Notes under the pieces: generated by a model
Databases searched by the model: none
What the model was told of the DNA's origin: nothing
The model's input: only the letters and a program-made list of their open reading frames with translations
Shown here: positions 5,838 through 24,672 of the stretch, one piece after another
How positions within the stretch are numbered: the first letter of the stretch is position 1
Layout of the letters: each line of letters starts with the position of its first letter
From: Candidatus Bathyarchaeota archaeon
Lineage (GTDB): Archaea > Thermoproteota > Bathyarchaeia > 40CM-2-53-6 > RBG-13-38-9
NCBI GenBank assembly: GCA_963807605.1
Contig: CAWECG010000003.1
Location: 320,001-384,000 of the forward strand
Direction of reading: 5' to 3'
DNA: 64,000 nucleotides
Made by a program: the position numbers and the translations under genes

Positions 5838-5936
5838 TGGTGGGGTCGGTGGGATTTGAACCCACGACCTCGCGGGTTCTTGAAGCCTCGGGGCTACCCA
5901 AGCCGCGTAGCGTAGACCAGACTAGCCCACGACCCC
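5838..5936 (-). tRNA. tRNA-Pro(UGG) with 20-nt canonical 37/38 intron, encoded CCA
   Basis: Acceptor GGGGTCG/CGACCCC-ACCA; anticodon stem CGCGG/CCGCG; T arm GTGGG-TTCAAAT-CCCAC. BHB-like motif: CTTG/CAAG helix with GG|T and AA|C bulges. Confidence 0.92.
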
Positions 5937-24465: not shown

Positions 24466-24566
24466 TGGAGCCCCGGCTGGGCTTCGATCCCAGGACTTAC
24501 GGCTTACGAAGCCGTCGCTCTGCCAGGCTGAGCTTTCCCGCCTGTACTATCTTCAGGAACCGGGGC
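24466..24566 (-). tRNA. tRNA-Thr(CGU) with a 24-nt intron (24535..24558) between positions 8 and 9, encoded CCA
   Basis: Removing the insert gives GCCCCGG TA GCTC AGCCTGGCA GAGC G ACGGC TTCGTAA GCCGT AAGTC CTGGG ATCGAAG CCCAG CCGGGGC TCCA. The junctions form a perfect BHB. Confidence 0.88.
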
Positions 24567-24672
24567 GGAAAAACCGGGGCACGACGATCTTGATTGGTGA
24601 TACTCATAAGGATTTTTAGGTGCGTTCGATTGGGATCCATTCAGTATTCCATGAACGTGGACGAAGATCCCC

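Follow-up and report, generated by a model that had tools for sequence, protein, structure and literature searches.

Background

Reviews of archaeal tRNAs list many non-canonical intron sites, with 3/4 as the extreme case, and position 8/9 is absent from the example positions named in the accessible text of one of them (PMC4090602). Introns in the acceptor-stem region are mentioned in general terms in the accessible part of one paper on archaeal tRNA introns; an Asgard census (10.64898/2026.10.13.758758), in its accessible text, places insertions in the acceptor or at junctions among a small number of 'other' cases and does not use the word leader; and among 40 rows of the Atabeyarchaeia-1 intron table no intron starts at position 9. 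The literature searched (SPLITSdb, GtRNAdb and key subscription papers lay outside it) yielded no description of a published 8/9 intron, nor, with key subscription papers again outside its range, of a surrogate acceptor strand or decoy leader.

The tRNA-Thr(CGU) gene reported here resembles the non-canonical bulge-helix-bulge (BHB) introns of TACK and Asgard archaea (Thermoproteales; PMC4090602, PMC12397907) in its short intron, its canonical hBHBh' motif and its predicted cut after the second bulge base, as well as in the EndA genes, apparently of two-subunit type, of an intron-rich genome. It differs from those introns, as far as the accessible texts describe them, in that its motif uses the entire 5' strand of the acceptor stem and is accompanied by a conserved leader copy of that strand. 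Split tRNAs of Nanoarchaeum and Caldivirga also build an EndA substrate by pairing a non-exonic leader with a different stretch of the precursor, but there the leader lies inside the BHB and works in trans between two transcripts, whereas the Thr(CGU) leader would work in cis, outside the BHB, by pairing with an exon. Permuted tRNAs (Cyanidioschyzon merolae, Thermofilum pendens; PMC3218864) offer a parallel for splicing before end maturation and for a promoter displaced from the apparent 5' end; unlike them, Thr(CGU) has a normal exon order and needs no circular tRNA intermediate. Caldiarchaeum subterraneum likewise has a tRNA-Thr 5' end repeated directly upstream, its tRNA-Thr(GGU) 5' fragment (PMC3293823), where the repeat flanks an inserted region with a recombinase; the Thr(CGU) repeat, in contrast, is 7 nt long, lies 14 nt away and is tied to an acceptor-invading intron. 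The feature is genuine and conserved, and it combines a familiar type of intron, at what appears to be an unlisted position, with an apparently undescribed cis leader element.

The tRNA-Thr(CGU) locus

The window is a 64,000-nucleotide stretch of a Candidatus Bathyarchaeota genome (assembly GCA_963807605.1, contig CAWECG010000003.1, positions 320,001 to 384,000), and coordinates given without a contig refer to it (Table 1). A first-pass annotation of its letters had proposed a tRNA-Thr(CGU) gene with a 24-nt insert at position 8/9 that forms a full BHB, and a second perfect copy of the acceptor 5' strand 14 nt upstream. Both were recovered at the coordinates in Table 1. The Rfam tRNA model matches only from model position 9 to 63, with its first base exactly at 24534, and ARAGORN misses the gene in the window; given the in-silico spliced 77-mer, ARAGORN recognises a tRNA-Thr(cgt) whose 7-bp acceptor stem is perfect, and the junction left by intron removal is that of intact orthologs and paralogs. 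A relaxed ARAGORN run with introns gave many implausible long-intron calls and was left out of the results.

Table 1. Features of the tRNA-Thr(CGU) locus in window coordinates
Feature	Position	Strand	Basis or remark
Purine-rich BRE-like stretch	24611..24619	(-)	upstream of TATA-like box; A-rich run also in orthologs; putative role from archaeal promoter consensus
TATA-like box CTTATGAGT	24602..24610	(-)	conserved in f1 orthologs
Leader copy of acceptor 5' strand (putative decoy), GCCCCGG	24574..24580	(-)	7 columns near-invariant in 40 Thr genes, flanks variable
Spacer	24567..24573	(-)	sequence; 3' part joins alternative helix
Exon 1 = tRNA positions 1-8 (acceptor 5' strand + U8)	24559..24566	(-)	outer helix, central helix and 5' bulge of BHB
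24-nt BHB intron at position 8/9	24535..24558	(-)	Rfam boundary, folding, 82-gene comparison
Exon 2 = tRNA positions 9-76	24466..24534	(-)	sequence, Rfam, folding
Anticodon CGU (exon 2)	24508-24506	(-)	
Acceptor 3' strand (exon 2)	24476-24470	(-)	
U73 (exon 2)	24469	(-)	
Encoded CCA (exon 2)	24468-24466	(-)	

The motif is a canonical hBHBh', in which a 4-bp central helix is bordered by 3-nt bulges and both the outer and the inner helix have two or more Watson-Crick pairs. Its outer helix is G1-C11 and C2-G10 (2 bp), its central helix pairs C3 to G6 with 24540-24537 (4/4 Watson-Crick), its inner helix pairs 24557-24554 with 24544-24541 (4 bp), and its bulges read G7-U8/U and A-A/A9, the slash marking the cut. 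The first-pass statement that the BHB uses nucleotides 1-7 was correct for those nucleotides and too narrow in extent, as the motif occupies 1-8 and 9-11. Judged by its sequence and by comparison with relatives, the insert is very probably a real BHB intron at 8/9.

Identity between the leader copy and exon 1 runs for 9 nt, to 24572. The GCCCCGG 7-mer occurs 111 times in the genome, counting both strands; by chance, 6e-4 further copies would be expected inside a distance of 35 nt, and the Thr(CGU) locus is the genome's sole such pair. The box that had been placed about 29 nt before the copy was measured at that distance: the first T of the TTATGAGT box, at 24609, lies 29 nt before it, and CTTATGAG is conserved in f1 orthologs at 29-30 nt from the copy. 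In a crude TATA scan, which also picked up spurious hits at 23, the nearest TATA-like box of intron genes lies mostly 29-32 nt before the copy and at least 38 nt before the true G1, and the distance from box to G1 in intact genes has its mode at 34 nt. By the usual archaeal TATA spacing, transcription would start at 24580 or 0-3 nt before it, which places the copy in the predicted transcript.

Two further tRNA features of the window were recorded. In the T arm of Thr(CGU) (24494-24478, minus strand) the loop reads A54-U-C-G-A-A-G60, which is unusual for a tRNA; it is conserved in f1 orthologs and similar in the Thr(UGU) paralog. A tRNA-Pro gene at 5841-5936 (minus strand) has an anticodon-loop intron of ~20 nt, and ARAGORN assigns it the anticodon ggg without intron search and tgg with it.

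Genome context

The Thr(CGU) gene has thiL (divergent) on one side and alaXM on the other, and the closest named homologs of AlaXM are from Bathyarchaeia. The genome is 94% complete and intron-rich, and in this 94% no second Thr(CGU) gene, intact or otherwise, was found; an intact one elsewhere had been named at the outset as an observation that would count against the intron. The Thr(GGU) and Thr(UGU) paralogs of the same genome share this acceptor stem, but their 8/9 junction is uninterrupted and no copy lies upstream of them. The host encodes two EndA-family proteins (PF01974 matches in 188-aa frames), an RtcB ligase (PF01139) and an archaeal RNase P RNA; going by the number and size of the PF01974 proteins alone, its EndA would be of the (alpha-beta)2 type.

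The early-intron genes identified in this genome are four, Thr and Asn with introns at 8/9 and Lys and Tyr with introns at 9/10; all have a leader complementary to the tRNA 3' end, and among the remaining tRNA genes listed Gln(CUG) alone has a wobble near-copy upstream. The tRNA-Asn(GUU) gene at C4:65595 (-) has an 8/9 BHB intron plus further introns, and its leader GCCGCCG, 17 nt upstream, pairs into N73-C75. In tRNA-Lys(CUU) (L388, C3:610580 (+)) the 9/10 intron is 25 nt long and the leader complements 67-76 including CCA, as is also the case at most of 30 9/10 loci in relatives. A multi-intron Tyr-like tRNA beginning with C1 (C2:53324-53548 (+)) has a 9/10 intron and a leader that is a 10-nt complement of the 3' end.

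The intron and the leader copy among relatives

In families f1 and f6 the Thr(CGU) orthologs are interrupted at this site too, by an insert of other length and sequence, with the same exon 1 and central-helix partner, and in families f2, f5 and f7 the junction is uninterrupted. An intron at 8/9 also occurs in the Thr(GGU) genes of six other families and, class-wide, in Asn(GUU) genes. Across the 82 distinct 8/9-intron genes compared, intron length ranges from 15 to 46 nt and the inner helix varies in sequence with pairing kept through several pair types, two of its pairs being imposed by the filter that selected the genes. A metagenome search with a pattern made of the final six intron bases followed by the tRNA body, and hence blind to exon 1 and leader, returned 43 distinct loci; exon 1 and the inner helix stand in register in 39/39 of sufficient length, and all 39 full-length orthologs have a leader copy (37 exact, 1 with one G·U, 1 matching at six of seven). 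The mature tRNA-Thr body is near-invariant between families.

Two relatives depart from the common form. The Asn 8/9 insert of L256 (G043:C1) is 46 nt, about twice the usual length, and possibly holds a nested intron. In L011 (G011:C72:4257-4335 region), a Thr(CGU) gene, the inner 5' exon is GCCCCGCG, with no G7-U8, and the leader copy is intact; this may be a mutant, an assembly error or another splice route, and L010 and L011 can form a long hairpin between spacer and intron.

The proposal that the copy accompanies the intron in orthologs was borne out. We compared the 82 Thr and Asn intron genes with 69 intact genes having the same acceptor sequences, looking for a copy within 35 nt. Among the intron genes the copy is exact (7/7) in 64, has one G·U in 5, matches six of seven in 4 and is partial in 9 (score 5-5.5), so that all 82 score at least 5; among the intact genes it is exact in none, has one G·U in 3 and matches six of seven in 6. 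These counts must be tempered by the relatedness of the genes, which makes them overstate independence: they stand for about five isotype/position combinations rather than 82 events, and the Fisher P of 2e-26, which ignores relatedness, is not relied on. Intron and copy also follow each other in a crossed pattern, for in this genome Thr(CGU) has both and Thr(GGU) neither, while in family f5 Thr(CGU) is intact without a copy and Thr(GGU) has the intron with a wobble copy. In longer lists of intact genes, judged by eye, full upstream copies are isolated (G021:C23 and G113:C1 only).

The intact 8/9 genes with a full or wobble upstream copy are G113:C1:224698-224752, G021:C23:3880-3939, L202, L210, L213 and, in this genome, C4:321502; they could be relics of intron loss or due to chance.

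Identity or pairing of the leader

The reading we prefer, and consider probable, is that the leader copy serves as a cis decoy strand, pairing with the 3' acceptor strand and so freeing nucleotides 1-8 for EndA; the start site, splicing, hand-over and RNase P removal that go with it are its conjectural parts. This was the core of the first-pass proposal, and it passed the comparisons of co-occurrence and of covariation. As that proposal had anticipated, the copy follows the acceptor stem of its own host gene across isotypes: in Asn 8/9 genes, including that of this genome, the leader is GCCGCCG, their own acceptor sequence. Most internal changes at C positions of the copy turn C into T opposite G; partial copies have lost their 3' end. 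Lys genes with a 9/10 intron often have TGGCGGG as their leader, a complement of 70-76 including CCA rather than a copy of the gene's 5' end, and 30/30 leaders at Lys 9/10 loci pair with the tRNA 3' end (-14 to -22 kcal/mol). Because the Lys leaders complement the discriminator and CCA, it would be pairing, and not duplication, on which selection acts; these sequence comparisons indicate that the maintained trait is pairing with the tRNA 3' end.

In L064 (G084:C52), a Thr(GGU) 8/9 gene, just 3 nt separate the copy from exon 1, fewer than in any other 8/9 gene, and in the Lys-type 9/10 genes L372-L377 a 6-nt copy directly abuts G1. The spacers of L008-L011, L063 and L065 start like U8 and the D-stem (T/A-GCTC); such a leader may mimic the 5' strand of the D-stem, and the resemblance hints at an origin from a longer 5'-end copy.

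The same pairing might serve mainly to protect or quality-control the 3' end, either by masking 66-76 from tRNase Z, the CCA enzyme, synthetase and exonucleases or by giving the unspliced precursor a tRNA-like top half, with the freeing of the BHB secondary. It is in keeping with this that the pairing often reaches N73-CCA (the base preceding the copy pairs with N73 in 43/73 genes, versus 15/73 for the true -1 base), that the Lys, Tyr and Asn leaders of this genome extend into CCA, and that our folding model does not put the BHB in the ground state even when the decoy is present. Yet exact copies go with acceptor-invading introns and are lacking from those genes with intact junctions that were sampled, although D-arm or anticodon introns are frequent among them and would create an equal need of protection, and in Thr(CGU) itself the decoy pairing ends at 72. 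As the main function, protection is unlikely; the role is compatible with that of a decoy, and both can hold.

Alternatively, the copy could be a functionless relic of intron insertion, left by a duplication of the 5' end or as an attachment-site repeat. It does sit at about the promoter distance that G1 has in intact genes, several f1 spacers (L008-L011) begin in the way expected of a longer duplicate, there is a documented case of a Thr 5' end repeated by a mobile element (PMC3293823), and rare intact genes retain a copy. But a relic would not explain why just 7 columns are conserved in the Thr genes (40 in the group labelled Thr(CGU), 41 in the folding set, three of them, L066-L068, being Thr(GGU)) while the columns to either side drift, as does the length of the spacer (3-20 nt across families), or why changes in the copy preserve pairing; a duplicated 5' end could not yield the CCA complement of the Lys leaders, and a 7-nt gap is too small for an element. 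An attachment-site repeat of an integrated element was rejected, the repeats being 7 nt apart with thiL and alaXM as neighbours. We consider the relic reading improbable; it may account for origin and not for maintenance. The copy may have originated as a duplicated 5' end that is now kept by selection for 3'-end pairing, an origin made plausible by its position where G1 normally sits and by the spacers that resemble U8 and the D-stem.

Folding of the precursor

The expectation that the all-GC acceptor stem would out-compete the BHB agrees with the model: without the leader the true acceptor stem forms, P(BHB) is 6e-6 and the BHB costs 7.4 kcal/mol. With the leader, the copy pairs with 24476-24470 (positions 66-72) in the minimum-energy fold of the precursor and P(BHB) at 37 C climbs to 0.004, a gain of about 600-fold that is lost when the copy is scrambled; at 65 C it reaches 0.04. 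Folding with and without the leader, as had been suggested, was extended to all 82 genes and gave a lower BHB cost with the leader in 80/82 (median 3.7 versus 8.1 kcal/mol), and the leader beats a decoy mutant in 79/82. The specificity of this effect must be qualified, since shuffled GC-rich leaders also help the BHB: the wild type is better in only 65/82, and for Thr(CGU) it costs 3.4 kcal/mol against 2.8 for the shuffled leader. In the spliced precursor, a secondary-structure model without tertiary contacts makes the decoy fold ~2 kcal/mol more stable than the true cloverleaf, so hand-over to the true strand would need tertiary contacts or irreversible trimming.

Even with the decoy, the BHB lies 3 kcal/mol above an alternative helix between 24572-24564 (the 3' part of the spacer plus G1-C3) and 24542-24534, which is present in the minimum-energy fold. 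P(BHB) of Thr(CGU) with the leader is low because this helix competes; replacing the spacer by A7 raises it from 0.004 to 0.86. The first-pass annotation had offered such a helix as a switch, which we took to mean a regulated or timing device keeping the intron uncleavable until a signal arrives or the 3' strand is made. That the helix can form and beats the BHB in the model was confirmed; the switch role found no support. Its stability exceeds that of shuffles in f1-type genes, where 12 spacer/tail pairs average -12.7 kcal/mol, against -9.6 when the spacers are shuffled and -11.7 when the tails are swapped, but 18 other (f6-type) combinations do no better than shuffled ones (-8.0 versus -8.7). 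Covariation is scant, no ligand or partner is evident, and a C/U-rich spacer ancestry together with the palindromic AGCU explains the helix. A switch is thus very improbable, and from these models we treat the helix as a family feature or by-product.

That the upstream copy is the true exon 1, through a 38-nt intron or a second splice removing the spacer and second copy, or that the gene is a pseudogene, is scarcely credible: the T after the copy in Thr(CGU) makes a long intron formally possible, and L011 has a damaged inner copy with an intact upstream one, but orthologs have A, C or T after the copy, so that U8 would usually be lost, the long reading costs at least 14 kcal/mol, a splice within positions 1-7 requires a self-complementary tetramer that is absent from the sequence, wobble and shortened copies are unfit as identity elements, and the near-invariant mature body speaks against a pseudogene. 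The long intron and the second splice were both rejected on these grounds. Also rejected were C8-to-U editing of the upstream copy (in most cases that base is A), a thiL promoter element (it is the host tRNA, not the neighbouring gene, with which the copy varies), a split tRNA (the exons are contiguous, and exon 1 and the intron make up the BHB) and a permuted tRNA (the 5' half precedes the 3' half).

Proposed pathway and implications

Under the decoy reading, transcription would start at or just before the leader copy, as promoter spacing suggests. The BHB needs tRNA nucleotides 1-8, which by their sequence would otherwise be locked in the 7-bp all-GC acceptor stem. Comparative and folding evidence suggests that the leader copy pairs with 66-72 and leaves the true 5' strand free for the BHB; if the timing is as we suppose, the same pairing would keep the RNase P cut at the true +1 from preceding splicing. 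EndA would then cut both bulges and RtcB ligate U8 to A9, the genes for both being present. The true strand would replace the copy by branch migration, presumably aided by tertiary contacts (U8-A14 and the D/T loops). Irreversible removal of the 14-nt leader by RNase P would complete the hand-over, which the secondary-structure model does not drive.

In Methanopyrus, end-trimming comes before splicing (PMC3695527). The same order here would trap an unspliced leaderless precursor with its BHB 7 kcal/mol uphill, which supplies a rationale for the decoy. We lean, by a narrow balance, towards a general rule for Bathyarchaeia in which acceptor-invading introns (8/9, 9/10) persist only with a leader surrogate strand, a cis chaperone obligatory for splicing, in reversal of the Methanopyrus order.

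If true, this would explain how an intron can be placed where splice motif and acceptor stem exclude each other, and would account for standard finders missing or shortening such genes, as in the ARAGORN miss and the partial Rfam match described above. It would predict a splice-before-trim order and that gaining an intron close to the 5' end has a two-part requirement, and the tRNA 5' leader would be a selected functional folding element, not a disposable spacer.
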